From positions 45,586 to 109,585 of IMG/VR virus record IMGVR_UViG_3300031952_000004: DNA of 64,000 nucleotides. One strand, given 5' to 3'. The stretch is from a virus. Below the pieces are notes generated by a model, which worked only from the letters and a program-made list of their open reading frames with translations, had not been told where the DNA came from and did not search any database. The position numbers and the translations under genes are program-made. Positions 9,066 to 54,999 of the stretch are shown here, one piece after another; the first letter of the stretch is position 1, and each line of letters begins with the position of its first letter.

Positions 9066-9074
9066 GAGAATAAT

Positions 9075-28746: not shown

Positions 28747-30411
28747 TTATTCACGTTCTAACGATTCTTTGATAAAATTTAATACGAAATAAATGACTTC
28801 TTTAATTTCTCGAAAGTTTGTAGTTGAAGAAAATAATCTAAATTCTATAGTCTGATAATCTTCTTTAGGTAGATGTGAAATATTTAAAGAATAATATTTT
28901 TCGTCAATGTAGCTATAATGTCTAAAATTAGTTCTTAGATTATTTCTAAAATTATGTAATTCTTTTTCTGTAAGTTTATGCAGCTCACTCTTTGGTAATA
29001 GTTTACATGTATTAGCAATGCGTTCTTTAGAAATATTAAACCTTTTAGCAATATATTTTTGTTTATGTATCCATTCTTTTATAATAGTTATAATTTGTTT
29101 ATCTGTTAAATTTTTAATATTACAATTATGAACAATTAAACCATTAGCAATGTAGGTATTTGTCCCAGTTTCAAAATTATATACTCTTACTTTTTTTCCT
29201 TTTTTGTAAGTAATTCTTGATATATCTTTACAACCCCAATACTTTAAAGGTTTATATTTTAGTTTATTGGGATGTGTTTGAGCATAAAAATCTATAGCGG
29301 GCATTATTCTTAGTTCATAGAATTTTCTATTAGATATTTGAGTTTTTCTAATTCTTAATTTAAACGAAATATTTAATTCGTTACAATATTGTTTAATTTT
29401 ATTTATTTTTTTTAAGTTTGTATTGCATAAAATTATTTCATTAGATGTTTGTGTTCCTTCTGCATCAAAAAAACCTGCCAAATATCCGAGTTTATAAAAT
29501 GTGCTATTTCTAAGATGAGAATTTCTTAAAAAATTATATACATCCTTTCCTCCTACACATGAATAAAAATAATTTTTATTATCTTGATGTATTGACATAT
29601 TTCTTTTCAATCCAACTTTGTTAAAACATATATTAATAAAATTCAACAAATTTTTATCTTTACAATGAAAAGTTATTTTTGAATTTTTGTTATGTTTTGC
29701 ATTGATAATATGTCCGTCGCCAGATATATATCCATCTAACCATCCTCGATGCCACGATTTGTCTCTATAATTTTCATCCTGTCTATTGTTATTGAATGTT
29801 ATATATTTTGTTTGTTTTATATGTTCGGCAGGATAGAAATAATTAATTCTTCTATTATTTACAGGCGTTTGAGCTAAATATTTAATAATGGGATGTTCTG
29901 GAGTTACAGATACTAAAAATTTATTATTATAATATAAATCGATTGTATCTGCATTTCGACAATATTTTTTGCTTATTTTAGTAGAAATAAATTCTCCAGA
30001 AATTAAATTCAATCCCAAAATATTGTCCCCTATTTTAATTCGTTCAATAGATTTTGAGGTGTAATCAGGTAACATAATTTTAGTTCCCCATTTAAAGCAA
30101 TGAATATGTAAACCACAAGTAGGTTTTGCTTTTCCTCTATAAACACGTACTAAAGCTAATATTTCTTTTATTTGAAGAAAAGAATCTTCATTATAATATA
30201 GATGATTAGAATTTTCAGGAGAAAGTTCAATTCCATTATTCAAAGACCCATCGTTTTTTATCTCCCAACCCTTTAAGGTTTTACCACGTTCAATAAGTCT
30301 ATCAGATTCTGTTTTAGCTGGTAATTCGAATTCAAATTCAGGAGCAAATCTGATTTTCTTAATATCTATAAGTTTAATTTTGTCTTCTTTTTTATTTATT
30401 GACTTAACCAT
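28747..30411 (-). CDS. Putative amidoligase (COOH-NH2 ligase family) containing an intein
   Basis: EFEF, DGSL..GIELSP, TCGLHIH, KYYSLN, TIEFRLF motifs interrupted by an intein. Confidence 0.8.
   Translation of the reverse strand: MVKSINKKEDKIKLIDIKKIRFAPEFEFELPAKTESDRLIERGKTLKGWEIKNDGSLNNGIELSPENSNHLYYNEDSFLQIKEILALVRVYRGKAKPTCGLHIHCFKWGTKIMLPDYTSKSIERIKIGDNILGLNLISGEFISTKISKKYCRNADTIDLYYNNKFLVSVTPEHPIIKYLAQTPVNNRRINYFYPAEHIKQTKYITFNNNRQDENYRDKSWHRGWLDGYISGDGHIINAKHNKNSKITFHCKDKNLLNFINICFNKVGLKRNMSIHQDNKNYFYSCVGGKDVYNFLRNSHLRNSTFYKLGYLAGFFDAEGTQTSNEIILCNTNLKKINKIKQYCNELNISFKLRIRKTQISNRKFYELRIMPAIDFYAQTHPNKLKYKPLKYWGCKDISRITYKKGKKVRVYNFETGTNTYIANGLIVHNCNIKNLTDKQIITIIKEWIHKQKYIAKRFNISKERIANTCKLLPKSELHKLTEKELHNFRNNLRTNFRHYSYIDEKYYSLNISHLPKEDYQTIEFRLFSSTTNFREIKEVIYFVLNFIKESLERE
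29125..30099 (-). mobile_element. Intein (325 aa) with LAGLIDADG endonuclease in amidoligase
   Basis: Starts CFKWGTKI, block B VTPEHP, LDGYISGDG and LAGFFDAEG, ends VYNFET..YIANGLIVHN, followed by Cys. Confidence 0.92.
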
Positions 30412-30558
30412 AATTTATATATTTTTATTATTTCTCTTATATCTAATTTATTACTAAACATTAAATAAATAGAAAAAGGTAAAACTAAAAATACAATAAA
30501 AAGCATACCTAATGTAAATATTATTATTGCTAATGATAAATTAAGCATTAGTTTCTCC

Positions 30559-31098
30559 TTATTGTTTTTTTAACCAAATACTATACGCTTGATTAATATC
30601 ATTAATATCTATAGGATAATATTTCCATTGTTCAATACTAACATTACAACAATCTGTAAATTGATTATTCTTTTTAATTCTAGAAAATTGCCATTTATTA
30701 TGTACATGTCCTACTATGTTAAATTTATAATTAACGTCTGCAAAATCTGGATTATGAACTAAATTAATTCTTTTTCCTCCATGTTTTATAACTAATCTCT
30801 CTATGGGAGTTTTAAGAGAATTATTCTTATCATGATTACCCTGGATAAAAATAATATTTTTACAATTAAGTTGATTAATGAAGTATTGAGGTTTATCTTT
30901 TTCGCCTTCTCCTCTACCAGAACCTGAACGAAAAATAAAATCTCCTACAAAGAAAACCATATCTTCTTTTTTAACTCTTTTATTAAAATTAGAAATAATG
31001 GTATTATTCATCTCATCCAATGTTTTAAAGGGTCTACCTGTGTATTTAATTATATTGAAGTGATTTAGATGCCAGTCAGAAGTGAAATAAATATTCAT
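30559..31098 (-). CDS. Calcineurin-like metallophosphoesterase
   Basis: SDWH, VGD, GNHD, H, GHVH motifs. Confidence 0.88.
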   Translation of the reverse strand: MNIYFTSDWHLNHFNIIKYTGRPFKTLDEMNNTIISNFNKRVKKEDMVFFVGDFIFRSGSGRGEGEKDKPQYFINQLNCKNIIFIQGNHDKNNSLKTPIERLVIKHGGKRINLVHNPDFADVNYKFNIVGHVHNKWQFSRIKKNNQFTDCCNVSIEQWKYYPIDINDINQAYSIWLKKQ

Positions 31099-31109
31099 AA
31101 AATTATCTC

Positions 31110-31718
31110 CTATTTTTTAGGATAAAGTATTTTATCTACTATTCCATACTTTAAAGCATCTTCGGGGAACAACCAAAGTTGTCCATTTTTAATTTGTGTT
31201 AATTGTCTTTGATTTAATTTAGTATGTTTTTTTAACATTTCATTCATTCTTTTTTCTAATCTAAATAAAAAACCAGCTTGGTCTTTAATATTTTGTACAT
31301 TACCTTGTAAAAGGTCAGAAGTACTATGTTGCATCCAAAATCCATTAGGAGTAATAAATCTTTTTTTACATACTATACTTATCATTGCTGCCATTGAGCA
31401 GGCTTCTCCTGAAATGATAGAATAAACAGGAGCATCTATGGCTTGTATTGTATCTATTATAGATAATCCATAAGTTACCCATCCGCCTGGACTGTTTATT
31501 TCCAAATTAATAGGTATAGTTTTATCTAGATAATTCATAGCTCTTATTTTAGAACAAACAATATCTGCACTAATATTATTAATTTCGTCGTAGAGAAGAA
31601 TATATCTATTTTTATTTAAAATTTTATAATAAAATTCTTCAGAGTATTTATCTTTTTTATCAATTTTCAAATCTTCTTTTATTTCTTCGTCGTCGTTATC
31701 CCGATAGATTTTATTCAT
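31110..31718 (-). CDS. clpP: ClpP-family protease subunit A
   Basis: INSPGG, GEACSMAA (Ser), MQH (His), YGIVDKI. Confidence 0.88.
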   Translation of the reverse strand: MNKIYRDNDDEEIKEDLKIDKKDKYSEEFYYKILNKNRYILLYDEINNISADIVCSKIRAMNYLDKTIPINLEINSPGGWVTYGLSIIDTIQAIDAPVYSIISGEACSMAAMISIVCKKRFITPNGFWMQHSTSDLLQGNVQNIKDQAGFLFRLEKRMNEMLKKHTKLNQRQLTQIKNGQLWLFPEDALKYGIVDKILYPKK

Positions 31719-32907
31719 TTATTCCTCCTATTTTTAATTTATTAATTAAAGGCAAGCATAAAAAAGATGTAATCGCACTAATACATATTAATATTTTTAA
31801 TCCTACTAAAGGCAGTAATAACGCACCGCTAAAACTAGATGCAGTACCAGCAGAAAGATTATTAATACCACAAAGTAAAGCAAATGTAGTTGCTTCCAAT
31901 CCATCAATTGAAGATTTAGCCATCCAATCCATAACAATAAGAAAAATAAACATACCTATAATACTATAAAAGAAGGTGTAAATTATTGCACTTATCGGTG
32001 TAAAATAAAGATAAGATAAAGTTGTAATTGCACCTAACCAGACAGAAATATGTAACCATTTTTTTATGTTGATTTTTTGACTTAATTTCCAATAAAATAA
32101 TGCTCCTAAAATAGAAACTCCAGAAGCAACTGCTTCTAAAACTCCCATAAATTGAAAAGACCATTTAAATTTATCTCGCATAATGTAGGAAAGAGGAGTT
32201 CCAAACGAAGGAGAATACTTATAAAGAAATAAAAATAAACATCCCCATAAAAAGGATTTATTTTTAAAAATTTGTTTATAAGGTTTAATTGTCTCCATTA
32301 GTGATAATCTTATCACTTTTTGAGATAATCTTTTTTCTTCTTTGTAAAAATATAGAGGAATAAACATAACTAAATAAAAAGGTATAATTAATAAGAATCC
32401 TATCTTATAATTAAAATGTTCGGCTAAATAACCTCCCAATAATCCTGTAACAATCGAAGCAATAGTAATCGCTATCCATTGAAGACTTTGAATTTTACCA
32501 GTAACATTATACTTCTTACCCTCAATACACATTGTACCATCTACAGCTACATCTCGAATAGCCGAATCCGTTGAATTCATAAACATCATTGTAATTAACA
32601 TTATTAAAGGTAAAGACCAAATTCCCAAAAACAATACGGTAATTAAATCTATAATTAAAGAGAGTGTTATCCACATTTTTCTGGACAAAAATTGGTCAAT
32701 AAAAAATCCCCACAAAATTTTAGGAATCCAAGCTAGACCTATAATAGAATTAAGAAGCATTAATTTTTCAGGAGGATACATAAGAACTTCTTTAAAATAT
32801 TTAAAAAGAGAAAGAGACGGCAAGCCTTCAAAGCCTTGACAAAAATATGTCAAAGCAGATAAAGCATATATCCAAAATATTTTTTTAGAATTTAGGTATT
32901 TTATCAT
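31711..32907 (-). CDS. MFS transporter, BT1/folate-biopterin (FBT)-like
   Basis: About 12 TM; AWIPKILWGFFID, AIRDVAVDG, GKIQS..W, GLEATTFALL..INN motifs. Confidence 0.75.
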   Translation of the reverse strand: MIKYLNSKKIFWIYALSALTYFCQGFEGLPSLSLFKYFKEVLMYPPEKLMLLNSIIGLAWIPKILWGFFIDQFLSRKMWITLSLIIDLITVLFLGIWSLPLIMLITMMFMNSTDSAIRDVAVDGTMCIEGKKYNVTGKIQSLQWIAITIASIVTGLLGGYLAEHFNYKIGFLLIIPFYLVMFIPLYFYKEEKRLSQKVIRLSLMETIKPYKQIFKNKSFLWGCLFLFLYKYSPSFGTPLSYIMRDKFKWSFQFMGVLEAVASGVSILGALFYWKLSQKINIKKWLHISVWLGAITTLSYLYFTPISAIIYTFFYSIIGMFIFLIVMDWMAKSSIDGLEATTFALLCGINNLSAGTASSFSGALLLPLVGLKILICISAITSFLCLPLINKLKIGGINE

Positions 32908-33169
32908 GGCATTTTTTACAAAGGGTTATTCCCCAATAAATATCCCATAAAAATTTACAATGCAAAGCATCTTTAAATGATTTTATAGTTGAATGTGATT
33001 TTTTAATTTTTAAAATAGTAGACTTAGAATGTTTTTTTCCTATCATCCATTTTCCAAAATTTAATTTTTTAGCTATTTTTTTAAGTTTTTTACTTAATAA
33101 TAATTTAGTTTTTTTACTATGATGCTTTCCTTTAAATCCTAAACTGATATATTTTGATTTTTTATTCAT
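32885..33169 (-). pseudogene. Internally deleted NUMOD3-HNH endonuclease remnant
   Basis: Two NUMOD3-like GKHHS/GKKHS motifs fused to LWDI..GITLCKKCH; first HNH His segment missing. Confidence 0.65.
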
Positions 33170-33735
33170 TATAATATTTTATCTATTATTCCTTTTACTA
33201 AACATTCTTCTGGAGATAACCACATTTCTCCATTACGTAAGGTTTGTATTTCTGTATCAGTTAATTTAGTATAAGTTTTTAGATGACTTTCAATTCTTTT
33301 CCATAATTTTTTAATAAAATCAGCTCTGTATTCTACTTTACCAGAATAATCTCCAGTAATTCCTCCAGACATATCATGACCCATCCATATAGCATTTTTA
33401 GTAATATAACGTTCTTTTCCTACAATAGAAATTAATCCTGCCATAGAACAGGCTTCTCCAATTATTATAGTGATAATAGGACTCTTAATCAATTTTATAG
33501 AATCTATTAAGGAAAAACCAGCAGCAATGTTGCCTCCTTCACTATTAACATATATTTTTATTGGTTTTTTATTCAAAGCATCTAATAAGAAAATCTCTTT
33601 AATTAATTTTATAGTATTTTCAGATTTTACTTCTCCTATTAAGAATAGAGTACGATGTTTTAATAAAATATCATCTACTTCTAATTTTTTATTTATATCT
33701 AATTTTTGAGGAACTATAGGTTTTTTATTTTTCAT
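33169..33735 (-). CDS. clpP: ClpP-family protease subunit B
   Basis: VNSEGG, GEACSMAG, MGH, GIIDKI. Confidence 0.88.
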   Translation of the reverse strand: MKNKKPIVPQKLDINKKLEVDDILLKHRTLFLIGEVKSENTIKLIKEIFLLDALNKKPIKIYVNSEGGNIAAGFSLIDSIKLIKSPIITIIIGEACSMAGLISIVGKERYITKNAIWMGHDMSGGITGDYSGKVEYRADFIKKLWKRIESHLKTYTKLTDTEIQTLRNGEMWLSPEECLVKGIIDKIL

Positions 33736-33747
33736 TTTAAAATTCTC

Positions 33748-33828
33748 CTATTTTAATTTTAAATTACATTTTTTACAAGAAGTGATTAAATTGGTTTTTC
33801 TACAATCTATACAGTAATATTTTTTCAT
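33748..33828 (-). pseudogene. 26-codon remnant of Zn-finger HNH gene
   Basis: MKKYYCIDC fused to NLITSCKKCN, i.e. the two ends of the local HNH family. Confidence 0.7.
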
Positions 33829-34352
33829 ATTTGAATAATTAAGATAGATAGAAGGACAATTAATCCCCAAACTATAGTTTCGACCCAATTTAGTGTTTTA
33901 CCAAATAATTTATAACTTCCAAAATTTCTCCAACTCATTAAAGCATTTATCATACAAATACCTAAACTACATAAGATGTATACTAACCAATTTTTCTTTA
34001 AAATAGGAATTGAAATCAAAGATAGGGCAATTAACACTCCTATCGTTCCTCTCGTAAATACATTAGCTAAACTTTCATTATGATTGAATAAGTTATAAAA
34101 GAAAGCACCCAATTTACTTCCTTTATCATCTTCACAAGGAATTCCATAACCCATAGAAATAGGTATTGACATTAATATTATAGTTATAATTAATAAACTT
34201 TCTGTAGAAGAATAAGCTAAAGAAGTAATTAATCCAGGAATTAATATTCTTCTATATAATTTAGAAGAATTATCGGCTCCTCCCAATGCTCCTAAGAAAC
34301 CACCCAATAAAGGTAAAGCACAAGTTATTATTTTATTTATTATTTTTTTCAT
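33825..34352 (-). CDS. Multi-pass membrane protein
   Basis: Five to six hydrophobic segments. Confidence 0.7.
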   Translation of the reverse strand: MKKIINKIITCALPLLGGFLGALGGADNSSKLYRRILIPGLITSLAYSSTESLLIITIILMSIPISMGYGIPCEDDKGSKLGAFFYNLFNHNESLANVFTRGTIGVLIALSLISIPILKKNWLVYILCSLGICMINALMSWRNFGSYKLFGKTLNWVETIVWGLIVLLSILIIQI

Positions 34353-34957
34353 TTAATAGAACTCCAATATAATTGGAATAAATTATTTATCATTGGAATA
34401 CCCTTTATAACAAACCAGGGGAGTATAATAATATTTAAAAAAGTAAATATTCTTATAAATGTAGTAATCAATTTTTTTAATATAATAATACTTTTCTTTT
34501 TTCCTATAAATTTTTCTAGCAAGACTAATATAGGATAACTTCCATCCAATCCAGGAACTGGAATTAAATTACTCATTCCTGCTAACAAATTAAAAAATCC
34601 TATATACCACAAATAATAATTATTTATTTTTAAACTTAATAAACACATTAAAATACCAAAAATAATATTCACAAGGCATCCTGAAATTGCTATTAAAAGT
34701 TTTTTATAATATCTTAAATTCATAAAAGCAGTAGGACTTTTAGAAAAATCTAATTCTCCTTCTAATTCGCAATAACCGCCTAATAAGAAAGGAGTAATTT
34801 TATATATTGTTTTATTTATTTTTATTTCAAATCCAAATTTTCCAAAACCAAGACTATATTTAATAACTTTACATTTACATAATTTAGCAGTTATAAGATG
34901 GGCTGTCTCGTGTATACATATTAAGGCAATCAATGAAATTAGAAATAGTAATATCAT
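34349..34957 (-). CDS. M50 site-2 intramembrane metalloprotease (RseP-like, no PDZ)
   Basis: IHETAH, SLGFG, LGGYC, AISG..VN, NLIPVPGLDG. Confidence 0.9.
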   Translation of the reverse strand: MILLFLISLIALICIHETAHLITAKLCKCKVIKYSLGFGKFGFEIKINKTIYKITPFLLGGYCELEGELDFSKSPTAFMNLRYYKKLLIAISGCLVNIIFGILMCLLSLKINNYYLWYIGFFNLLAGMSNLIPVPGLDGSYPILVLLEKFIGKKKSIIILKKLITTFIRIFTFLNIIILPWFVIKGIPMINNLFQLYWSSIK

Positions 34958-35119
34958 CTAGTTCTCCATTAAATAAATAAAATAAGCATACCAATAATCA
35001 CGATTTATGTTTACTTTCAAATTGCATCCACGACAACTAGTAATTAAATTATCTTCTTTATTATTTTGTTTATTATAATTAATATGATGTACTGTTTTAT
35101 TTCTTTTAAATTTATTCAT
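34958..35119 (-). pseudogene. HNH catalytic-domain-only remnant
   Basis: VHHINYNKQNN..NLITSCRGCN..NRDYWYAYF..MEN; no Zn-finger N-terminus. Confidence 0.7.
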
Positions 35120-35120
35120 T

Positions 35121-35762
35121 TTATTTGCGATAATTAACATCTCTATATCGGCGGTCGAATAAGACGATTCCTGATTGATGGTCGCACTCATGTTGTATTG
35201 CAAGTGCTTCTAAATCTTGTGAACAAGAAGTAAGTTCTTTAAAATTCTCATCTAAATATGTAATAGTAATATAGGTATATCTTTTTGTTGTTACGGAAAT
35301 TCCAGGAAAACTTAGACAACCTTCATTATTAACTCTAATAGGTCTATCGTGTTCAATAATTTTAGCATTAATCAAAATAAATTCATTGTATTGCATCTGT
35401 TTATTTTTGTCAACAAACTTTGGTATCTTAATATAAGAAATTTTCTTATTAATACCTATTTGATTGGCAGAAAGACCGATACCACCCTTATTAACTAAAG
35501 TATCTTTAAGGTCTCGAATAATGTCATCAACATCTTCTCCTTTTTCTACAAGAGCACAAGGCTTTTTTAATTCATTAATGTTTGTTATAATAGGAAAACC
35601 TGCTGGTTTTACTTCTATAAAAGTAGGTTTATAATCTTTTTCTAGCATTTTTTTTAATGCTTCTCTCTCTGATTTAGTTAAATAACCTTTTTCCATTTTG
35701 ACTTTTTGTTCTACTTTATAAATATCAAATTCTAATTGGTCTTTAAAAGTTTGTTTAATCAT
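35121..35762 (-). CDS. def: Peptide deformylase
   Basis: GIGLSANQIG, EGCLS, QHECDH motifs. Confidence 0.93.
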   Translation of the reverse strand: MIKQTFKDQLEFDIYKVEQKVKMEKGYLTKSEREALKKMLEKDYKPTFIEVKPAGFPIITNINELKKPCALVEKGEDVDDIIRDLKDTLVNKGGIGLSANQIGINKKISYIKIPKFVDKNKQMQYNEFILINAKIIEHDRPIRVNNEGCLSFPGISVTTKRYTYITITYLDENFKELTSCSQDLEALAIQHECDHQSGIVLFDRRYRDVNYRK

Positions 35763-35882
35763 TTTTTGCTCCTTGCTCTTTTTAATAATTCTAAAATTAC
35801 ATCAGATTGCGTTATTCTTTTTGTTCTTTCGAGATACATCAATTCATCATAGTTTAATTTACTTAAAATTTTATCAATCATT

Positions 35883-36317
35883 TTATTTTCCTCCTAAAAT
35901 TAATAAAATTGTTCCTATAATCATACCCCACCAATAGGTATAAGGTAATCCTAAGAACCATCTAAGATGCCATTCGATTTGTTGTTTACGAAATCTTCTC
36001 CAAGTGTAATGAGGATTAAACATGAACCATAAGGCATCTTCTACGACAAAAAACCAAGATACTAATCCTAAAACTTTTAATTCTGTTTTTAGACTACCTA
36101 ATTCGTTAATAAAACCTCCATGAAAAACAGTAATAAATAAAAGTAATAAATATATATGATAACCAGTTAATGGTTTTCCTCCTAATAAAGTTCTAAAGAA
36201 AACATTAATACGAAAAGTAGGAAGTTGTTTAGCCCATCCGTTTCTTCCTTCTACCTGTATTTCCCACAAAGCAGTTATAATAGCTAAGATTAATGTAAAG
36301 ATATAATATTTAATCAT
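35883..36317 (-). CDS. Membrane protein
   Basis: Four TM segments; EIQVEG..GW, EDALWF..NP motifs. Confidence 0.7.
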   Translation of the reverse strand: MIKYYIFTLILAIITALWEIQVEGRNGWAKQLPTFRINVFFRTLLGGKPLTGYHIYLLLLFITVFHGGFINELGSLKTELKVLGLVSWFFVVEDALWFMFNPHYTWRRFRKQQIEWHLRWFLGLPYTYWWGMIIGTILLILGGK

Positions 36318-36892
36318 TCTTTTTCCTCGAATAGATTATTACAATTTAAACATTTAGCTTCCAAATAAGTAGCACACCTAATTGTAGTACATCCACAAGA
36401 ATATTTTTTCATCTTTGTAGGAGCAATTATTGTAAAATGAGTTTTTCTGTATAGTTTAAACGTAACTTCATTAGGTTTAATTTTTTCTATGATTTTCTTT
36501 AAATTATCAGATAAAGAAGTTAATCCCCATCCATGTCTTCCGTCTTTTTCTACGTTTAAACCGTAAATTTCTGCTCTTTCTTTAAATGCTTTATTGTGAT
36601 ATTGTTGTGAATTACAATCTTCAATCTTATCACAAGTATTAGAATAATGTACCATTTCATGAACTAAAGTTTCGATAGGATTATTATTTAATTCTTCTGC
36701 ACAAATATTAATTTCACTAATAGTTTGTTTACCTCGTTCCCATTTATTTTCCCAATGCCAACCAAGAACTTTTTGTCTACCTTTGGATTGAATGGTAATA
36801 ATAGGTCTAGGATATTTTAATTTAAATTCAATAGCTAGAGCATCATAGATTCTTTCTAATTCTTTAATAACTGGTATAATTGAATTATTCAT
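36314..36892 (-). CDS. SprT-like zinc metalloprotease
   Basis: EINI..TLVHEMVH..YHNKAFK, C-terminal YSCGC..CLNC. Confidence 0.8.
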   Translation of the reverse strand: MNNSIIPVIKELERIYDALAIEFKLKYPRPIITIQSKGRQKVLGWHWENKWERGKQTISEINICAEELNNNPIETLVHEMVHYSNTCDKIEDCNSQQYHNKAFKERAEIYGLNVEKDGRHGWGLTSLSDNLKKIIEKIKPNEVTFKLYRKTHFTIIAPTKMKKYSCGCTTIRCATYLEAKCLNCNNLFEEKE

Positions 36893-37127
36893 TTTTCTTT
36901 TTATAAGTAGGAAATATACTGGGGAATTTTTTTCGTGCTATTCTCAATGCGATTAATCCCTGACATTTATGAATAGCTTCTGCAAATTCTTCTTTTTCAG
37001 AAGGATGTTGTTCTTCCAATTTAACAAAAGAATTATATGATTTAGTTAAATAATCCAATACTTGTTTTTCTAATTTAGTCAATTTTACTTTCTCCTTTTT
37101 CTCTAATAATATAAGTAAAGTACGCAA
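36885..37127 (-). CDS. Small hypothetical protein (true start probably near 37083)
   Basis: QHPSEKEEF..AIH..Q..IA.R helical motif. Confidence 0.55.
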   Translation of the reverse strand: MRTLLILLEKKEKVKLTKLEKQVLDYLTKSYNSFVKLEEQHPSEKEEFAEAIHKCQGLIALRIARKKFPSIFPTYKKKNE

Positions 37128-37764
37128 ACCAATAATCTCTGTTAAAATTTGCTATGGAATTACAGCTCTTACATGTAGTTATTAAATTCTCCTCTGCACA
37201 ATGTTCTTTATTATAATCTATGTGATGTACAGTATTTCCCTTCTTATTACATCTTTGGCAAGTATAATTATCTCTTTTTAGAATTAATGTTTTTAATTCA
37301 TCATCAAATTCAAATGGATAAGGCAAATTACTTATTCCTTCTTGCCAATTGGGATGATTTTTACCTTTAAATAAAATAGGTTGCAAATTAGTCCAATAAC
37401 ATTCTTGACATCTCGTTGATTGCCAACTAATCAATTTTTTACAATCCACGCAGTAGTTAGATTTAGTAGAACGCCCATCAATATAATTATGAACATTTTC
37501 AGGATTTTTAAAAAACTCTTTCATAGATTTACTATTAGCACAACCTCTGCATCTTCCTTGACCGTAATATCCCGATTGATATGTAATTTCTTTTTTACAA
37601 TCTACACAATAGTATTTTTTCATGGTTCTACCATCTATCAATCTACGTTGATTCTTTTGAGTCGCACAAGAACCACATTTGTTTGCATAATCGCAGATTA
37701 ATTTTCCACAATCCATGCAATGGTGATTTTTGATATAATGCTTTTTATATAATTTTACTTTCAT
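37075..37764 (-). CDS. Zn-finger HNH homing endonuclease
   Basis: CxxC repeats; ILKRDNYTCQRC..VHHIDYNK..NLITTCKSCN. Confidence 0.88.
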   Translation of the reverse strand: MKVKLYKKHYIKNHHCMDCGKLICDYANKCGSCATQKNQRRLIDGRTMKKYYCVDCKKEITYQSGYYGQGRCRGCANSKSMKEFFKNPENVHNYIDGRSTKSNYCVDCKKLISWQSTRCQECYWTNLQPILFKGKNHPNWQEGISNLPYPFEFDDELKTLILKRDNYTCQRCNKKGNTVHHIDYNKEHCAEENLITTCKSCNSIANFNRDYWFAYFTYIIREKGESKID

Positions 37765-39211
37765 TATTTTCTCTAATAATATTTATCTGTTTTACATTTT
37801 CTAATTCAGTATTTATATCTTGTTTAACTATGATAAATTGAAATCCTAAAGTTTTTAACATATCTACTAATTGTTTAAAATTTTTATTGTCAATTACGTT
37901 CATTCCATCGTCACAAAGTATGACTCCATTAGTTATATTTTTCTGATAAAGAATTCCCAATTTAAAAATAATATTTAAAAAACAACATTGACCACTACTT
38001 AATTGAGAATATTTTAATAATTGACTATTATCCATAATTAATAAAAAATCTTTATCTGCAACAAATTTAACAGATATGTTAATGGACTGTAATAAATTAT
38101 TAATTATTATTTGTAACGATTCTAACCATGTTTTGATATATACGCCAGCAAATAAATCAAGTATTTTTATTGCTTCATCATAGATAACAATATCTGCTTT
38201 TGTGTATTTATAATCCTTAAACTGAAAAGCTCCTTTTAATCTTATTAATTTTTCTCTTGCTTTACCTTCTTTATTACGAAGAGCTGACAAAGTATCATCA
38301 TAATATTCTATAGATTCTTCTTCAGATTCTAATTGTTTTTTATATTGTTCTATAGTATGGTTTAATTGTTCTATTTCTTGGTACACTCCTGTTTTATCGG
38401 GTTTATTCTTTGGAGTAATCTTCTCGCATTTCGTCTTGAGAACAGGACATATACCTTCATCTACCTTTTTCATTTCTTGCTGTTTGTAATAAATAATTTT
38501 TTCTCTACTTTGTATTTCGCTTCTAAGAGAATTAATAATTCCTTGTTGTATACCTTTTTCTTTTTCTAATTTTAAAAAATCATTTTTCATCTCATTTAAT
38601 GAAGCGATTAACAAGTCTAATCGCTTCACCGAAAGATAGTGTTTATATAATTTCTTATCTATCGAATATCGTTCTCTTTCTACTTTTTTGGCTAATAATT
38701 TAGTTCTTATTTCGGTAAAATAAGATTCGATAAAATTCATTAAAGATTTCCTGAGCGATACAATACCTAAATCTAATGTATTTATTCCATTTTTTAAATC
38801 GCAACATCTATATTGTCTAAAAAAATTAATATCTCCGAAAGTTTCGTTTATTAAATTTTGTTTAATACTTGCTGTGTTTGCTTGAATTTCTTTTTCATTA
38901 AGGAAAATCTGTAATTCAGAAGGTATTTTTCTTATTATTCTGTAATTTTCGTTGTTATTGGTTATTTCTAAAGTAACTGAACTTTCTTTTTCTCCAAATC
39001 TTATAAGGTCAACTAATTTTAATCCTTCCTCTACATATCCGTAGAGGCAGAATAAAATAGCACGCAATACTAATGTAGATTTTCCGCTACCATTTCCTGA
39101 TTCTGAAGGACTGTCCAAATTTTTCCCAGAAATAATATTAATCTTATCAAAATCAACCTGAGCTGATTTGATAAGTTGGAGGTTTTGTATTTTTAAGGAT
39201 TTTATAATCAT
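37745..39211 (-). CDS. SbcC/Rad50 (T4 gp46-like) ATPase
   Basis: GNGSGKST Walker A, coiled coil, central CPV...C, LSSGQ signature, ILCDD Walker B. Confidence 0.88.
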   Translation of the reverse strand: MIIKSLKIQNLQLIKSAQVDFDKINIISGKNLDSPSESGNGSGKSTLVLRAILFCLYGYVEEGLKLVDLIRFGEKESSVTLEITNNNENYRIIRKIPSELQIFLNEKEIQANTASIKQNLINETFGDINFFRQYRCCDLKNGINTLDLGIVSLRKSLMNFIESYFTEIRTKLLAKKVERERYSIDKKLYKHYLSVKRLDLLIASLNEMKNDFLKLEKEKGIQQGIINSLRSEIQSREKIIYYKQQEMKKVDEGICPVLKTKCEKITPKNKPDKTGVYQEIEQLNHTIEQYKKQLESEEESIEYYDDTLSALRNKEGKAREKLIRLKGAFQFKDYKYTKADIVIYDEAIKILDLFAGVYIKTWLESLQIIINNLLQSINISVKFVADKDFLLIMDNSQLLKYSQLSSGQCCFLNIIFKLGILYQKNITNGVILCDDGMNVIDNKNFKQLVDMLKTLGFQFIIVKQDINTELENVKQINIIRENNESKII

Positions 39212-39212
39212 C

Positions 39213-39488
39213 TTATCTAAAATAATATTCGGTTAAAAATTTAAATTCTTTTTTCTTATTTTTGTATCGTTTATCTATTAAAGCACAAATAATGTCATAG
39301 GTATAATCATAATTTCTTCCTAATTTAAATTTACAAATAAAGTAATGACCTAATTCATGTACAATTGTTTCTATTTTATCTTTTAAAGATAATTTCTTTT
39401 GAATTCTAATAGTATTATTTAAATAGTCATAAACCCCTATAAATTTATTCCCCTGCCAAACATCTTTTACGAACTTTATTTTAAACAT
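39213..39488 (-). CDS. Small HExxH zincin-like peptidase (ImmA/IrrE-like)
   Basis: G.Y.....I.I...L......TIVHELGH. Confidence 0.65.
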   Translation of the reverse strand: MFKIKFVKDVWQGNKFIGVYDYLNNTIRIQKKLSLKDKIETIVHELGHYFICKFKLGRNYDYTYDIICALIDKRYKNKKKEFKFLTEYYFR

Positions 39489-40020
39489 TTTCTATTTTTT
39501 CTATAAAATAATATCCATCTCTTATTAAAGTTACATAAGATAATTTACAAACTTCTCTTGCGTCAAAAGGAGCAGTAATTATATGAATTCCATTCTTTGA
39601 TAAATGAGATTCTTTGATAATACCATTGAAGTTTCCAATTATAGTATGAACTTCCTCAATTTCAGTTCTAGTATTTGCGTCTACATCAAACATAAAATTA
39701 TTTTCTGCTTTACATTCGGGTTGTAATAATGCTGTTTTCCAAAGAGAATCAATACAGCCATCAAATTGCGAGGTTTCTATAAGTTTATGTAACATCCAGA
39801 TTCTTGCTTTTTTAGTATCTCTTGCATTAACTGTATGATGAATTGTCCAAATTCCACCTAATTTTTTACATTTTTCTCTTAATAAAAATAAATCTAAATT
39901 ATAATCATTAATAATTACTCTAATACATTCGTTAGTTAAATTGGGATTATTTTTTCTTCTTCTAAAAGCTAATAATAAATGTACCATATTTCTTATAGGT
40001 CTATCTTCATGATTTGCCAT
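39481..40020 (-). CDS. Phage protein with AEP-like motifs
   Basis: FMFDVD and SKNGIHII resemble archaeo-eukaryotic primase motifs I and II. Confidence 0.45.
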   Translation of the reverse strand: MANHEDRPIRNMVHLLLAFRRRKNNPNLTNECIRVIINDYNLDLFLLREKCKKLGGIWTIHHTVNARDTKKARIWMLHKLIETSQFDGCIDSLWKTALLQPECKAENNFMFDVDANTRTEIEEVHTIIGNFNGIIKESHLSKNGIHIITAPFDAREVCKLSYVTLIRDGYYFIEKIENV

Positions 40021-40416
40021 TTATTCGACCTCTTTTTGTAAAATTTCCGTAATTTTAGGGTCTATTTTTTGATTATTTAAATAATTCTTAAAACTTTCCT
40101 TAAAAGAAGTCATTTCGGTACGTATACTTTTTTCGGTACTATCCGAAATAACTTCAAACGATGTTTCATACTTAAATGTCGCAAATTTTGTATCATAATT
40201 ACGACATAAAGGAAGAAATTCTCTATAACTTTCAAAATCAAGGATTTTGACTTTAACTTTGGTATTTGGTGGTAATTTATCTAAATAAGTTTGACATTGA
40301 GCTAAATTTAAGGCATTTTTGCCCTGTTTTAGCCCCGTAGAGCTACTTTTTTTAGTTAAAGCATCATTCTTACTACCTTCAATTTGATTGTTTTTATCTA
40401 AGTCGTTGTCTGACAT
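40021..40416 (-). CDS. Probable C-terminal fragment of split SbcD/Mre11 nuclease
   Basis: KVKVKI..F..Y...SFKNYL resembles the gp47/SbcD capping region; GGAG RBS lies inside HNH 3' end. Confidence 0.55.
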   Translation of the reverse strand: MSDNDLDKNNQIEGSKNDALTKKSSSTGLKQGKNALNLAQCQTYLDKLPPNTKVKVKILDFESYREFLPLCRNYDTKFATFKYETSFEVISDSTEKSIRTEMTSFKESFKNYLNNQKIDPKITEILQKEVE

Positions 40417-40895
40417 ATAGTTAAGTTCTCCCATTTGGGTTTTATATATTTCAAACCTATTTCTATCATTTCCTCATATGTTAAAATATTACTTTTCATC
40501 GTATTACAAATTCTGCAAGCCCATACAATATTATCAATAGTATATCCTAATTTTGGATTTTTCTTATCAACTTGAAGACTATATTTTCCTTTTATTTCTT
40601 TAAATATTTTTTCAGAAATTCCACAATATGTACATTTATGGGGTTCATTCCAAAATTTTCTAAATTCTTTTAAAGTACAATATTTTTTGTTTAATTTTTC
40701 TGACCTTAATCTTAATGCACCCCATCTCAGTTTAGCATAATCTGGAATTGTTTTTGTTCTTCGTATTAAATTTAATTTCCTATAAATAATTCTATGACAA
40801 TCATTAGAACAATATATTTTTTTAGATATACTTGTTAAAAATTCTTTTTTACAAATTGGACAAATTTTGGATTGCAATTCTTTTTTAATATACAT
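40398..40895 (-). CDS. HNH endonuclease inserted in SbcD
   Basis: CPIC..YCS..C, CTYCG..VDKKNP..GYTIDNIVWACRICN..K. Confidence 0.85.
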   Translation of the reverse strand: MYIKKELQSKICPICKKEFLTSISKKIYCSNDCHRIIYRKLNLIRRTKTIPDYAKLRWGALRLRSEKLNKKYCTLKEFRKFWNEPHKCTYCGISEKIFKEIKGKYSLQVDKKNPKLGYTIDNIVWACRICNTMKSNILTYEEMIEIGLKYIKPKWENLTICQTTT

Positions 40896-40896
40896 A

Positions 40897-41514
40897 TTAT
40901 TCCTTACTAAGTTCAATCTGTACCATAGGGATAGGAGTTTTAAGAGGTATGAAATCAACCTTTTCTTGAGAAGTATTATAATTAGTAATCAAAGCCACTA
41001 ATTTATATTTATCTTTGGCTTCATCAAAATTAACAAAACGACAACTTCCTAAATGTATTATATTAGGGTCAAAAGAATGTAAATGTCCCAAAAAAATAAG
41101 CAAATAATAATTTTTTAAATCTTTTATAGATATTTTAGCACCATAATTTTTAGAAGATTCTTTTACAGAAAAATGTCCACAATAAAGATGATTTTCATCT
41201 CTAATTTCTTTTACTATAGTAACGTTAGGAGAAAGTATTCCATAAATATCTACAGAAGATAACTCTAATGTTTCACTTTCATGACTTTGTGCAGCCAGCA
41301 AAATAATTTTTCTATTTCCTAATTTCCGAATAAACCTCCCTAAACAATTAAGTTCGGAAGCAGTTGGTTTATTGTTATCAAAATTATCGCCTAAACTAAT
41401 TATATGAGTAACAGAATATTTATTACATAATTCTACAATTTCTTGTAAAATTATTTCACATTCTTTTAAATTATTTTGGTTTATGTGTAAATCCCCAAAA
41501 ATTAAATAAGTCAT
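40897..41514 (-). CDS. SbcD/Mre11 (T4 gp47-like) nuclease, phosphoesterase domain only
   Basis: GDLH, LGDNFD, SHE, GH, GHLH, HLGS...FDE; upstream of SbcC. Confidence 0.82.
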   Translation of the reverse strand: MTYLIFGDLHINQNNLKECEIILQEIVELCNKYSVTHIISLGDNFDNNKPTASELNCLGRFIRKLGNRKIILLAAQSHESETLELSSVDIYGILSPNVTIVKEIRDENHLYCGHFSVKESSKNYGAKISIKDLKNYYLLIFLGHLHSFDPNIIHLGSCRFVNFDEAKDKYKLVALITNYNTSQEKVDFIPLKTPIPMVQIELSKE

Positions 41515-42243
41515 CTAGTTCTCCATAATATAAGTAAAATAAACATACCAATAGTCTCTGCCAGTATTGGTTTTATTATGACATTTATGACATAAGGTAA
41601 TTAAATTATCTTCCTTACAATTTTTTTTATTATAATCAATATGATGAATTGAAAGTTTTTTCTTTAAATCTTTTAATTCTTGTGTTTGCGTTTTGTTACA
41701 TAACTGACATTTGTGGCTGTCTCTTTTAAGAATCTTAGTTTTTAATTTTTCATTCCATTGTTGATTATATGGTTCTTTGCCATTTCCATCAATATACATT
41801 GGATTTTTCTTTCCTAATTTATGGAAGCGTTCATTACAAGACTTACAACGTTTAACTTTGTAGGATTTGGCTCTATTTCCACAATCAATACAGATAGATT
41901 TACCGCCAGTCCATGTAGGCGAATTAATCCCCATTAATAATTTTAATATTGGAGAATCATTATAACATTGTTTATTACAATAATTATGTTGATTATGTTT
42001 TAATTGATATGGATAAATTAATATAGATTTTTTACAAGTAAAACATTTAACTCTTATCAATCCTTTATAACTCGGATTTGATTTCCCACTTAATGTTTTT
42101 ACATAACACTTTTGACATCTTTTTGATTTATAAATAGATTTTGCATTTCCGCATTTGCAGAAATATTTTTTCATTGTTCTACCATCTTTATAAGATGGAT
42201 TATTTTTCCCTACATTAATATGATAACCCTTACGAGTATTCAT
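41515..42243 (-). CDS. Zn-finger HNH homing endonuclease
   Basis: CxxC repeats; ILKRDSHKCQLC..IHHIDYNK..NLITLCHKCH..RDYWYVYFTYIMEN. Confidence 0.88.
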   Translation of the reverse strand: MNTRKGYHINVGKNNPSYKDGRTMKKYFCKCGNAKSIYKSKRCQKCYVKTLSGKSNPSYKGLIRVKCFTCKKSILIYPYQLKHNQHNYCNKQCYNDSPILKLLMGINSPTWTGGKSICIDCGNRAKSYKVKRCKSCNERFHKLGKKNPMYIDGNGKEPYNQQWNEKLKTKILKRDSHKCQLCNKTQTQELKDLKKKLSIHHIDYNKKNCKEDNLITLCHKCHNKTNTGRDYWYVYFTYIMEN

Positions 42244-42585
42244 CTAAGCGTTTCCTATTTGTTCTACTTCTTTATTAATAATTTTATTTTTTATTTTTTC
42301 ACGTTTATCTTTTTGAATTTGCGTCTTAGGATTTCTGTTCCAAATTTTTCTTGAATTTGAATAAATATCACATGCTTGATTACATTTAGTACAAATATAA
42401 TAACAAGTACCTATTATCATATTCTTAGGATTATCTCCAAAAAAATCGGGAGACATACTAATTTTTACTTTAGCATTACAACATAAAGATTTTAAATTAT
42501 TTTTCTTTTTCATTATCGAATCCTCCAAATATGTCTTTAAAAAAATCAGGAATATTCTTATCTTGACATTTAGCACATAATCCAT
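42244..42585 (-). CDS. Small Zn-ribbon protein (true start probably at MKKKNN)
   Basis: SLCCNA..CTKCNQAC. Confidence 0.55.
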   Translation of the reverse strand: MDYVLNVKIRIFLIFLKTYLEDSIMKKKNNLKSLCCNAKVKISMSPDFFGDNPKNMIIGTCYYICTKCNQACDIYSNSRKIWNRNPKTQIQKDKREKIKNKIINKEVEQIGNA

Positions 42586-42644
42586 TTTTAAGTGCGGTAA
42601 AATTATTACATTTTTTACAACAATCTAGATAAAAGACATCTTCG

Positions 42645-54995: not shown

Positions 54996-54999
54996 AAAT

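Follow-up and report, generated by a model that had tools for sequence, protein, structure and literature searches.

A conserved island of predicted peptidase, deformylase and membrane-protein genes in a family of tailed phages

Many phages use a ClpP-like S14 enzyme as their prohead protease. In cells, PDZ domains gate the HtrA/DegS-like site-1 as well as the RseP-type site-2 membrane proteases, and the PDZ size filter confines RseP to pre-trimmed substrates. Passages in published reports describe that RseP cleaves RseA and FecR and degrades the toxin HokB (PMC10470546, PMC8144685, PMC4597795). In jumbo phages, patchily distributed ClpP, ClpS and SprT-like genes were proposed to target host proteins (PMC7824862). 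Here we analyzed a window of 64,000 nt (positions 45,586 to 109,585 of IMG/VR record IMGVR_UViG_3300031952_000004), for which an original prediction had described nine genes at 31110–39488 as a phage-encoded protein-processing cluster.

Gene content and borders of the island

All nine genes were located as one co-oriented run on the minus strand, as had been claimed. Their identities stood in seven cases (ClpP_A, the BT1/MFS transporter, ClpP_B, M50, Def, TM175 and TM144), with TM175 and TM144 being the two multi-pass membrane proteins of the island according to hydropathy. The genes called “SprT” and “ImmA-like” gave weak matches below the Pfam cut-offs.

30559–31098 (−): metallophosphoesterase, PdeM/SbcD-like, 179 aa (Pfam Metallophos, E 8e-8)
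31110–31718 (−): ClpP_A, S14 ClpP-family serine peptidase, 202 aa (Pfam CLP_protease, E 1.4e-36); core
31711–32907 (−): BT1/FBT-family MFS transporter, 398 aa (Pfam BT1, E 8e-21); core
32885–33169 (−): Lys-rich ORF, 94 aa, no match in Pfam or PHROG, no ortholog in the relatives’ loci compared
33169–33735 (−): ClpP_B, second S14 ClpP-family peptidase, 188 aa (Pfam, E 3.5e-33); accessory
33825–34352 (−): TM175, multi-pass membrane protein, ~5–6 segments by hydropathy; accessory
34349–34957 (−): M50 site-2 protease of the RseP lineage, 202 aa (Pfam, E 9e-26); core
34958–35203 (−): HNH endonuclease, 81 aa (Pfam HNH, E 5e-5), between Def and M50
35121–35762 (−): peptide deformylase (Def), 213 aa (Pfam, E 6e-36); core
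35883–36317 (−): TM144, small helical membrane protein; core, most conserved member
36314–36892 (−): HExxH protein with a C-terminal Cys cluster, weakly SprT-like, 192 aa; accessory
36885–37127 (−): small ORF
37075–37764 (−): HNH gene
37745–39211 (−): SMC/SbcC(Rad50)-like ATPase, 488 aa (Pfam SMC_N, E 5e-9)
39213–39488 (−): HExxH protein, weakly M78/ImmA-like, 91 aa (Pfam M78, E 4.6e-4, below cut-off)
2992–4866 (+): prohead protease-scaffold fusion, 624 aa, a separate head-maturation protease

Three HNH genes and the SbcC-like ATPase also lie within 31110–39488; the genes of this range left unmentioned earlier are two HNH genes (34958–35203 and 37075–37764), two small ORFs and the 488-aa SMC/SbcC-like ATPase.

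The downstream boundary of the island is conserved: the metallophosphoesterase adjoins ClpP_A in all relatives (42–55% identity). It matches the NCBIfam PdeM model below the cut-off (E 9e-11) and probably acts in nucleic-acid repair rather than as a protease. The conserved upstream neighbor, syntenic in all relatives, is the SMC/SbcC-like ATPase with a split Mre11/SbcD (40021–41514), which together are a recombination nuclease and not a protease. The “SprT” gene scores below the Pfam gathering threshold (SprT-like, E 1.6e-3), matches PHROG 6361, a family of unknown function (E 1e-21), but no PDB sequence, and has an ortholog solely in the near-identical contig L001. The “ImmA-like” gene matches PHROG 87, “metallo-protease” (E 2e-6), and its orthologs are confined to the L002 group. 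Because both are weak calls, not conserved and placed among the SbcCD recombination genes, we removed them from the module in which they had originally been counted.

Conservation and variation among related phages

A synteny search recovered the order TM144–Def–M50–BT1–ClpP_A–phosphoesterase in ~12 distinct IMG/VR contigs (42–84% protein identity), which are independent and derive from different samples; the core genes are therefore co-conserved in relatives, in line with the original prediction. The conserved core is made up of TM144, Def, a predicted PDZ-less RseP-type site-2 protease, the FBT-family MFS transporter, a ClpP-family peptidase and the phosphoesterase. In the distant phages L198 and L203, Def, TM144 and BT1 alone are kept, within 3–9 kb, although the backbone order has changed.

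The accessory genes are more restricted. ClpP_B occurs in L001, L006, L007 and L202 only, and TM175 in L001, L002, L006, L197 and L202. The HNH gene at 34958–35203 is a mobile insert: it is absent from L002, L004, L005, L007 and L010, where the Def and M50 genes are directly adjacent or share 4–16 nt. Variable slots hold a Peptidase_M17 gene in L002 and L202 and a Peptidase_M16 gene with an HxxEH motif in L004, L005 and L010. Since these slots contain further peptidases, the island is a peptidase hotspot, with five peptidase families across the phage family in one 6–8 kb slot; the phage studied here has neither an M16 nor an M17 gene. L001, which is nearly identical, is a mosaic of 100%-identical genes beside genes at 61–82% identity, indicating frequent recombination at the island.

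Outside the island, a membrane-anchored, trypsin-like protease is conserved in G002–G004 (TM anchor at 10–45, intact His/Asp/Ser triad, no PDZ match). Together with the M16 and M17 genes of relatives, it strengthens the proteolysis theme of the proposed protein-processing cluster; the cluster is not purely proteolytic, as its cargo includes the transporter and TM144, joined in relatives by GT2-TPR-LicD and GNAT genes. Simulating random placement in 109.6 kb, we found four of the five robust non-virion peptidase genes inside 4.1 kb in 0.1% of simulations. The clustering of peptidase genes thus exceeds chance (P ~0.001).

Features of the proteases, the deformylase and the transporter

ClpP_A aligns to ClpP over residues 26–198 (PDB alignment) and differs from canonical ClpP in its acidic N-terminus. 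In the ortholog alignment its catalytic Ser and His are kept, while at the third triad position this phage has Gln and most orthologs have Glu; the triad positions of ClpP_B are Ser-His-Glu (PDB alignment). Both share the derived motifs CSMA, WMxH and G-E-L-W, and the E. coli Glu-Arg-Asp stretch with the catalytic Asp is replaced by N/T-G-E/Q in both. ClpP_A stays below every NCBIfam cut-off (cellular ClpP, 119 bits against 228; head maturation, 91 bits against 120). As both proteins score below the NCBIfam cut-offs and have this stretch altered, it is uncertain whether they assemble into tetradecamers and dock an ATPase. The phage genome has no gene for a Clp ATPase or adaptor.

In the M50 protease, HExxH and NxxPxxxLDG are invariant across 18 sequences. 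Residues 3–107 align to residues 4–108 of the Aquifex RseP homolog and residues 115–153 to 356–394; because the alignment skips the middle of that protein, the PDZ region of ~250 residues is absent, in contrast to RseP of Aquifex and E. coli with their PDZ tandem. An exhaustive search yielded ~25 single-stretch clusters of ~190–210 aa, followed by canonical RseP of 330–475 aa matching in two stretches. No homolog was found in 50,697 GenBank phages or in PHROGs. The start of TM175 overlaps the M50 stop; TM175 had no match in Pfam, NCBIfam, PHROG or PADLOC (best Atlas score 0.76). Def narrowly exceeds the cut-off of NCBIfam TIGR00079 (104.2 against 103.95 bits) and has a conserved N-terminal extension of ~55 aa; its motif-1 Gln, the Cys of EGC and HExxH are kept in 8/8 orthologs. 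The motifs M50 HExxH/LDG, Def Gln/Cys/HExxH and ClpP Ser and His are intact.

The transporter matches Pfam BT1 over its full length (residues 24–387), whereas its NCBIfam matches, fbt (E 3e-14) and AmpG (E 1e-11), both stay below cut-off. Its stop overlaps the ClpP_A start. All named cellular relatives (54–57% identity) are proteins from Omnitrophota MAGs. In an unrooted tree, a 100%-supported branch separates phage from Omnitrophota sequences with no interspersion, so that recent independent captures, named at the outset as evidence against the module, are not seen for BT1. Neither ThyA, ThyX nor Fmt is encoded, leaving the phage without a folate-dependent enzyme. The phage family probably infects Omnitrophota (nanobacteria), an assignment that is provisional because the phage GC of 25–30% is far below the 40–49% of Omnitrophota-like contigs. 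Passages in a published study describe Omnitrophota as mostly ultra-small and with host-dependent traits (PMC10066038). A captured host operon was rejected: the other island genes were missing from 80 BT1 loci of Omnitrophota-like contigs and from 80 cellular TM144 loci, save one RseP-like match at one TM144 locus.

Possible functions of the island

We tentatively favor, with a probability of roughly 0.4 for the reading as a whole, that the island, part of the early arm on the replication side of a ~110-kb tailed phage, is a phage-assembled toolkit for proteolysis, peptide salvage and N-terminal processing, which would boost both protein breakdown in the infected cell and the maturation of new protein. 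The ClpP-like chamber or chambers would cut cytosolic protein to peptides, presumably fed by host Clp ATPases because the phage has none of its own. An M16 oligopeptidase or M17 aminopeptidase could, in relatives, carry the peptides further toward amino acids, a step that host enzymes would have to perform for this phage. Without the PDZ size filter, the site-2 protease could cleave membrane-embedded helices with no prior site-1 cut, with potential targets including remnants of signal peptides, small membrane proteins and anti-sigma factors. Def would strip the N-formyl group from phage nascent chains as they are made in a burst, and likewise from fMet-peptides, on which it blocks aminopeptidases, and the transporter may bring in folate, pterin or a SAM-type cofactor. 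Taken together, these activities would supply phage translation with amino acids and cofactors and mature the N-termini of its products, in a host that is very small and short of nutrients. Against this reading, phage synteny is largely inherited, and co-conservation is shared by the SbcCD neighbors and does not prove one pathway. This phage's lack of M16, M17, Clp ATPase and folate-dependent enzyme genes and its altered ClpP sequences likewise count against it. The roles first suggested for the cluster, takeover of host proteostasis, destruction of defence proteins or compensation for a reduced host, are candidates that look alike at the sequence level.

That the stretch is host DNA misassembled onto a phage contig has a negligible probability. 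Its genes come from typical cellular housekeeping families, but the 109.6-kb record carries direct terminal repeats, GC is even at 24–27% over the region and its flanks, phage genes lie on either side, and the arrangement recurs in the ~12 viral contigs while the Omnitrophota-like contigs lack it and differ in GC. The record is a phage and no host chimera, the other outcome that would have spoken against the original prediction. We also consider it very improbable that one or both ClpPs are capsid-maturation proteases, with the remaining cluster incidental. As had been noted before, a separate prohead protease starts at 2992, in the canonical place between portal-side and capsid genes. His90 and Ser140 of its N-terminal domain are invariant in five orthologs, its C-terminal half is coiled-coil-like, and with its model (pLDDT 62) Foldseek ranked T4 gp21 best (5jbl, E 7e-5, probability 1.0), together with herpesvirus assemblins. 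Because of this gp21-like enzyme, and with the ClpP genes in the replication arm and oppositely oriented, we rejected ClpP_A and ClpP_B as head proteases; contig G003 even has the head module and the island with no ClpP in 77.6 kb, the syntenic slot being empty. Such a role would suit the 1,285 phage records with ClpP-like genes found by tblastn, many of them prohead proteases (30–34% identity), and the C-terminal motif G-E-L-W-L-S-x-E-E, which we take to resemble the head-maturation class; the head-maturation scores of 91 and 78 bits, however, are below that model’s cut-off and below the cellular ClpP scores.

Rather unlikely, yet the strongest of the alternatives, is that the SbcCD–phosphoesterase interval is a permissive insertion site for unrelated host-derived auxiliary genes whose order reflects descent only. 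Def would then serve translation and the transporter cofactor uptake, while peptidases, glycosyltransferases and the acetyltransferase would each act alone. The presence of HNH inserts, GT2-TPR-LicD, GNAT, M16, M17, ClpP_B and TM175 varies between relatives, the SbcCD and phosphoesterase genes on either side are equally syntenic, L001 points to frequent recombination, and island genes are not neighbors in cellular loci apart from the single RseP-like match. However, five peptidase families in one slot amount to a strong functional bias, their clustering in this genome is non-random, most relatives couple the translation of Def and M50, and the Def/TM144/BT1 trio outlasts rearrangement of the backbone. 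An unlikely further possibility is a de-regulated intramembrane cascade for regulation or counter-defence against a specific host target, such as an anti-sigma factor, a membrane-bound defence effector or a small toxin: the PDZ-less HtrA/DegS-like protease would make the site-1 cut, the PDZ-less RseP the site-2 cut, and the ClpP-like peptidases would destroy the released fragment. This would reprogram the envelope-stress response or block abortive infection. The phage has genes for all three tiers, both membrane tiers lack PDZ domains, the trypsin-like protease is kept with anchor and triad intact in G002–G004, and both the known RseP activities on RseA, FecR and HokB and the host-protein targeting proposed for jumbo-phage ClpP, ClpS and SprT-like genes (PMC7824862) fit. 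Yet the trypsin-like gene lies ~40 kb from the island even if the distance is taken across the terminal repeat, no candidate substrate emerged, island proteins had no PADLOC match, Def and the transporter would have no role, and the same slots alternate between ClpP_B, M16 and M17, which better suits bulk peptide breakdown than a single cleavage.

Besides proteolysis and N-terminal processing, TM144 may widen the scope of the island. It is 47–84% identical among phages, with invariant residues including E19, E23, GW, K48, TGY, H66, D94, N101 and WH117, and its AlphaFold model (pLDDT 89.5) had no PDB fold match. The uncharacterised family is widespread in cells, with homologs at 35–47% identity in Dehalococcoidia, Patescibacteria, Elusimicrobiota and methanogens, and neighbors at the cellular loci include GT2 (16/80) and MGDG-synthase-like genes (11/80). 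These glycosyltransferase neighbors and the GT2-TPR-LicD and GNAT cargo of relatives point to possible envelope functions as well.

Gene order of the island and its conservation among related phages

The record comprises 109,585 bp with direct terminal repeats, and the window is its right-hand 64 kb, with a GC content of 24–30% throughout. Bases 1–28,300 carry plus-strand virion genes, among them genes for a tape measure, a baseplate wedge and a lectin-fold structural protein. From position 28,343 on, minus-strand genes with replication, recombination and DNA-modification functions follow (PolB, a PrimPol-helicase with an intein, RecA, SbcCD, an RNA ligase, an HD protein and two PAPS-reductase-like proteins). 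The cluster of non-virion peptidase genes, in the following called the island, forms the beginning of this minus-strand arm. It is transcribed from 39488 to 31110, and most neighboring genes touch each other or share a few bases.

Genes of the island and its downstream flank, in the direction of transcription
39213–39488, minus strand: 91-aa HExxH protein, weak M78 match
37745–39211, minus strand: SbcC-like ATPase (Pfam SMC_N)
37075–37764, minus strand: HNH gene (Pfam HNH)
36885–37127, minus strand: 80-aa ORF, no basis for an assignment
36314–36892, minus strand: 192-aa protein with HExxH and Cys cluster, weak SprT-like match
35883–36317, minus strand: multi-pass membrane protein TM144, no family
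35121–35762, minus strand: peptide deformylase Def (Pfam, NCBIfam)
34958–35203, minus strand: HNH gene (Pfam HNH)
34349–34957, minus strand: M50 protease (Pfam)
33825–34352, minus strand: multi-pass membrane protein TM175, no family
33169–33735, minus strand: ClpP_B (Pfam)
32885–33169, minus strand: 94-aa ORF, no basis for an assignment
31711–32907, minus strand: BT1/MFS transporter (Pfam)
31110–31718, minus strand: ClpP_A (Pfam)
30559–31098, minus strand: metallophosphoesterase, next after ClpP_A

Clustering of the robust non-virion peptidase genes was matched in only about 0.1% of random-placement trials. A scan for promoters and terminators yielded sites no more numerous than in shuffled sequence. 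The island shows no GC break, and a chimera with host DNA is nearly excluded.

Seven of the nine genes that the original prediction had named as a phage protein-processing cluster are solid assignments, whereas the SprT-like and ImmA-like calls fell below their family thresholds. The 192-aa protein reached 18.8 bits against the Pfam SprT-like cut-off of 25.6 (E 1.6e-3), had no PDB sequence match and shows only an HExxH motif and a C-terminal Cys cluster. For the 91-aa protein, the ImmA/IrrE (M78) score was 20.4 bits at a cut-off of 22, and the match spans only 32 residues around HExxH of a domain of ~120 aa. The SprT-like gene was found in one near-identical relative only, the M78-like gene in one subgroup.

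Related IMG/VR contigs were gathered with an M50 profile and with a TM144 profile. Conserved synteny in viral genomes, on which the original prediction depended, was indeed present: about 12 distinct contigs of 17–106 kb share the order SbcD–SbcC–TM144–Def–M50–(TM175)–(ClpP_B)–BT1–ClpP_A–phosphoesterase, with TM175 and ClpP_B each in about five contigs only. Identities of the relatives to the window are 43–55% for M50, 41–75% for Def, 45–82% for BT1, 42–77% for ClpP_A and 47–84% for TM144, and their GC content, measured for one set of the loci, is 25–31%. In two distant phages (L198, with a GC content of 35%, and L203) the backbone order is gone, but Def, TM144 and BT1 still lie within 3–9 kb of each other. 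Linkage is therefore oldest among these three genes. In L203, a B12-binding radical SAM enzyme (8550–10133) is located between TM144 and the BT1 transporter. A megablast search of GenBank phages with the island DNA returned no match.

Scanning the larger unexplained ORFs inside the relatives' islands, we identified further peptidases in variable slots. Peptidase_M17 is encoded between M50 and TM175 in two contigs (L002, L202). Peptidase_M16, with an HxxEH motif and an inactive C-domain, directly follows M50 in L005 and L010 and precedes TM144 in L004. Both families were searched for in the window's phage and are absent from it. When the whole phage family is considered, the island thus draws on five families of peptidases (S14, M50, PDF, M16 and M17). 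The scan also yielded GT2-TPR-LicD proteins, located between BT1 and ClpP_A (L002, L007) or after ClpP_A (L004), a LicD-only protein in L006 and a GNAT acetyltransferase in L197.

The closest relative, L001 (IMGVR_UViG_3300031746_000004), forms a fine-scale mosaic when compared with window positions 28747–43220. Identity is 100% for the phosphoesterase, an amidoligase, TM175 and the SprT-like gene and 99% for M50 and ClpP_A, but much lower for SbcC (61%), ClpP_B (73–75%), Def (75%) and BT1 (82%), which implies recent gene-by-gene recombination. HNH or other inserts split the BT1 transporter in L001 (11786–13876) and probably in L010 (11739–13108), as well as the SbcC-like ATPase in L004 (4635–6774), L197 and L010. 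In the window, an HNH gene (40398–40958) divides Mre11/SbcD (40021–41514) into parts of 205 and 137 aa; L002 is split likewise, and a single intact ORF of 316–347 aa is found in L001, L004–L008 and L010. Just downstream of the island, at 28747–30411, an Amidoligase_2 enzyme is interrupted by a LAGLIDADG intein that is missing from the orthologues in L002 and L197.

Peptidases of the island and the head protease

The M50 protein retains the HExxH motif in TM1 and the NxxPxxxLDG motif in a TM helix further on, and residues H16, E17, H20, N130, P133, D138 and G139 are invariant (n = 18 sequences). Against the RseP structures of Aquifex and E. coli it aligns in two pieces that skip ~250 residues, the PDZ tandem, with residues 3–107 and 115–153 corresponding to residues 4–108 and 356–394 of Aquifex aq_1964. 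Sequence similarity to RseP covers TM1 through the following conserved loop plus the LDG helix; the periplasmic PDZ tandem between TM2 and TM3 is missing, and the NCBIfam RseP score is 77.9 bits at a cut-off of 147.55. When 1.8 billion representatives were searched exhaustively with a profile, about 25 clusters with this short, single-piece form ranked ahead of ordinary RseP proteins of 330–475 aa, which gave two-piece matches. Motifs, two-piece alignment and exhaustive search together identify the M50 protein as a predicted site-2 protease (S2P) of the RseP lineage that has lost its periplasmic filter. RseP also disposes of small membrane proteins and of signal peptides (PMC4597795; PMC10470546, PMC8144685). 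A tblastn search with M50 against 50,697 GenBank phage records gave no match, and PHROGs contain no M50, TM144 or TM175 family.

Outside the window, at G000:C1:6816–7715 of the whole record (minus strand; locus L015), a trypsin-like (Trypsin_2) protease of 299 aa is encoded. It has an N-terminal membrane anchor and an intact His/Asp/Ser triad, lacks a PDZ domain and is kept in three relatives at 43–50% identity.

Def (PF01327) passes the TIGR00079 cut-off of 103.95 with 104.2 bits. All three motifs of peptide deformylases (PDF; GxGxAAxQ, EGCxS and HExxH) are present as GIGLSANQ, EGCLS and HECDH, and the Gln, Cys and HExxH residues are kept in 8 of 8 orthologues. In relatives without the HNH insert, Def lies directly next to M50 or shares 4–16 nt with it. 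As in the PDF of cyanophages and marine phages such as S-SSM7 (PMC3660681), the metal-ligand and catalytic residues are all kept, and Def would likewise deformylate nascent chains during infection. It differs from this type in a conserved N-terminal extension of ~55 residues, in its translational coupling to a site-2 protease within a peptidase island and in lacking a link to photosystem proteins.

Both ClpP-like proteins span the full S14 core including the handle region, with Pfam CLP_protease matches over profile positions 9–179 of 182 (E 1.4e-36 for ClpP_A, 3.5e-33 for ClpP_B) and near-gapless alignments to PDB ClpP chains. Their best NCBIfam scores, 119 and 105 bits, lie below the ClpP cut-offs of 228–249 and also below the 120-bit cut-off of a head-maturation ClpP-related model, and they are about equally distant from the cellular and the head-protease classes (30–35% identity). 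Of the Ser-His-Asp triad, Ser and His are conserved in 10 of 10 sequences; instead of Asp, most orthologues have Glu, and the window's ClpP_A and L007 have Gln. In both phage proteins, N/T-G-E/Q takes the place of Glu-Arg-Asp, the stretch of E. coli ClpP in which the catalytic Asp lies. ClpP_A and ClpP_B are ~40% identical and have the derived motifs CSMA, WMxH and GELW in common, which suggests a duplication within the lineage or a common unusual source. A canonical ClpP-like N-terminus of ClpP_B was considered and dropped, as the 'PIVP' stretch is not kept in the L006 and L007 orthologues. No Clp ATPase is encoded in the phage genome: the AAA_2 search gave no match, and a Clp unfoldase was rejected since the AAA matches of the genome are confined to RuvB and RecA.

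Non-virion ClpP, ClpS and SprT-like genes are patchily distributed in jumbo phages, and host proteins have been proposed as their targets (Iyer et al. 2021, PMC7824862). The island resembles that situation in having ClpP-family genes and a weakly SprT-like gene outside the virion module. Here, however, the phage is of ~110 kb, ClpP is a conserved core gene that is sometimes duplicated, and it adjoins S2P, PDF and an MFS transporter; identity to any GenBank phage ClpP is only 30–34%. Two divergent paralogues in one operon-like array that differ at the third triad residue (Gln versus Glu) also recall the ClpP1P2 or ClpP/ClpR hetero-oligomers of Mycobacterium, Listeria, Streptomyces and cyanobacteria (PMC9765437). 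Unlike in these, the Glu-Arg-Asp stretch is replaced in both phage proteins and ClpP_B is absent from most relatives, and therefore a ClpP_A/ClpP_B heteromer cannot be obligatory.

ClpP homologs can also act as head-maturation proteases. The original prediction had pointed to a separate prohead protease gene at 2992, and this assignment was borne out. The gene belongs to the head module and lies upstream of the capsid gene. Its 624-aa product has an N-terminal domain with invariant His90 and Ser140, followed by a coiled-coil-like scaffold half. Foldseek placed T4 gp21 on top (5jbl, E 7e-5, TM by target 0.57), followed by the HCMV, PRV and VZV proteases; the model is of moderate confidence (pLDDT 62). 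Invariant residues, structural matches to the HK97/T4 gp21/herpesvirus assemblin fold and the scaffold half identify a conventional prohead protease. Moreover, the 77.6 kb contig of a relative (G003) has the 2992-type head gene and the island and lacks ClpP throughout, the syntenic ClpP slot being empty. Head maturation therefore does not require the ClpPs, and a role of theirs as head protease is nearly excluded.

Transporter, membrane proteins and origin of the island

The BT1 transporter, a candidate member of the folate-biopterin transporter family (TC 2.A.71), has a full-length Pfam BT1 match above the cut-off (E 8e-21; MFS_1 4e-14). Within NCBIfam, it scored 52.6 bits for fbt, at a cut-off of 216, with AmpG close at 44 bits. 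The folate-using enzymes ThyX, ThyA and Fmt were searched for in the phage genome and none was found. More than 1,000 homologs were detected, and all organism-named matches (54–57% identity) belong to Candidatus Omnitrophota MAGs, on contigs of up to 290 kb.

TM144 was modeled by AlphaFold with a pLDDT of 89.5 and matched no solved fold, the best hits being E 1.3 in Foldseek and Z 5.8 in VIA-align, the latter at the noise level for helical bundles. It had no match in Pfam, NCBIfam, PHROG or PADLOC and only unnamed clusters in the Atlas; the lipocone superfamily (PMC12419801) was considered as a possible lead. The family shows striking invariant charged and aromatic residues, including Glu, His and Asp. 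It occurs in cellular MAGs of Dehalococcoidia, Patescibacteria, Elusimicrobiota, Gammaproteobacteria and methanogens, and also in other phages and two giant-virus MAG contigs (loci L031–L110, L200 and L204–L208). Recurrent neighbors of the cellular genes are GT2 and MGDG-synthase-like glycosyltransferases and histidine kinases, not peptidases. For TM175, an MFS-like assignment was not used, as the structural matches in the Atlas were weak (TM 0.40) and the model poor.

In an unrooted FastTree analysis of BT1, the Omnitrophota and large-contig sequences were separated from all phage sequences by a branch with 100% support. This pattern differs from that of repeated recent capture, which would have spoken against the original prediction. 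Among 80 Omnitrophota-like BT1 loci from metagenomes, none had ClpP, Def, M50 or TM144 within 10 kb. Together with the non-peptidase neighbors of cellular TM144, this led us to reject a captured host operon; the island was therefore put together within the phage lineage. The GC content of the Omnitrophota-like contigs is 40–49% (nine large contigs measured). A link between this phage family and Omnitrophota hosts is provisional, being based on one gene and weakened by a gap of 15–20 percentage points in GC content.

Possible roles of the island and further features of the record

We infer, with a probability of roughly 40%, that the island would raise protein breakdown and peptide salvage and aid N-terminal maturation for phage translation, with Def unblocking fMet peptides and the transporter importing a cofactor. 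Stepwise peptide breakdown in bacteria and organelles leads from Clp or Lon via an M16 oligopeptidase (PreP, pitrilysin) to M17 leucyl aminopeptidase. Likewise, S14, M16 with HxxEH and M17 occur within one island across the phage family. However, no single phage examined has all tiers, the window's phage has the ClpP tier only, plus S2P and PDF, and the function is here deduced from family membership.

The same genes could instead form a targeted cascade, in which a PDZ-less HtrA-like protease, the PDZ-less S2P and ClpP act successively on an anti-sigma factor, a toxin or a membrane defence effector. The three protease families of sigma-E proteolysis in E. coli (DegS, RseP, ClpXP) are indeed present in one genome, but both phage membrane proteases lack PDZ domains, the DegS-like gene is located far from the island, and the phage encodes no RseA-like substrate, sigma factor or ClpX. 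Because ClpP_B, M16 and M17 alternate in one slot beside Def, we prefer stepwise breakdown over a single regulatory cut. The cascade is an attractive but rather unlikely alternative. Somewhat less likely than breakdown and salvage is a plain accessory hotspot whose genes share no pathway, a reading that draws on the inherited nature of phage synteny and on the envelope-type genes among the island's cargo.

A farther-reaching and rather unlikely version is that the phage family has a largely self-contained, de-regulated pathway of protein liquidation. It would consist of a membrane-anchored PDZ-less HtrA-like protease, the PDZ-less S2P, one or two ClpP-like chambers and an fMet-unblocking deformylase, joined in some members by M16 or M17 peptidases. 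Such a set would break host proteins, those of the membrane among them, down to amino acids from which virions are made, and it may have evolved for ultra-small, nutrient-poor Omnitrophota hosts. The strongly conserved TM144 would then be either a membrane enzyme of a new kind or act together with the FBT-type transporter. If true, this would parallel, at the level of protein, the degradation of host DNA driven by phages.

Phage-borne deformylase (PMC3660681) and ClpP and SprT-like genes (PMC7824862) were known separately, and our literature search found no description of this gene combination. New are a phage site-2 protease without the normally restraining domain, tightly coupled to a deformylase, and a conserved island that samples five peptidase families beside a cofactor-type transporter in one phage family. 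If the island dismantles host protein to feed phage translation, it would be a protein-level counterpart to nucleotide scavenging and show how viruses exploit very small, resource-limited, as yet uncultured bacteria. It also offers RseP variants that naturally lack PDZ domains and lend themselves to mechanistic work, ties the phage family provisionally to Omnitrophota, and brings up the widespread TM144 membrane family, which has a confident model and obvious candidate active-site residues.

Elsewhere in the record, further inteins interrupt the PrimPol-helicase (60496–63534), an 876-aa gene (52401–55031) and a gene at G000:5209–6816. Two adjoining PAPS-reductase-domain (PP-loop) proteins in the replication arm (45358–47012) may represent a DNA or nucleotide modification system. 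The early region encodes a 362-aa protein with collagen triple-helix repeats (G000:C1:20191–21279; locus L016:191–1279).
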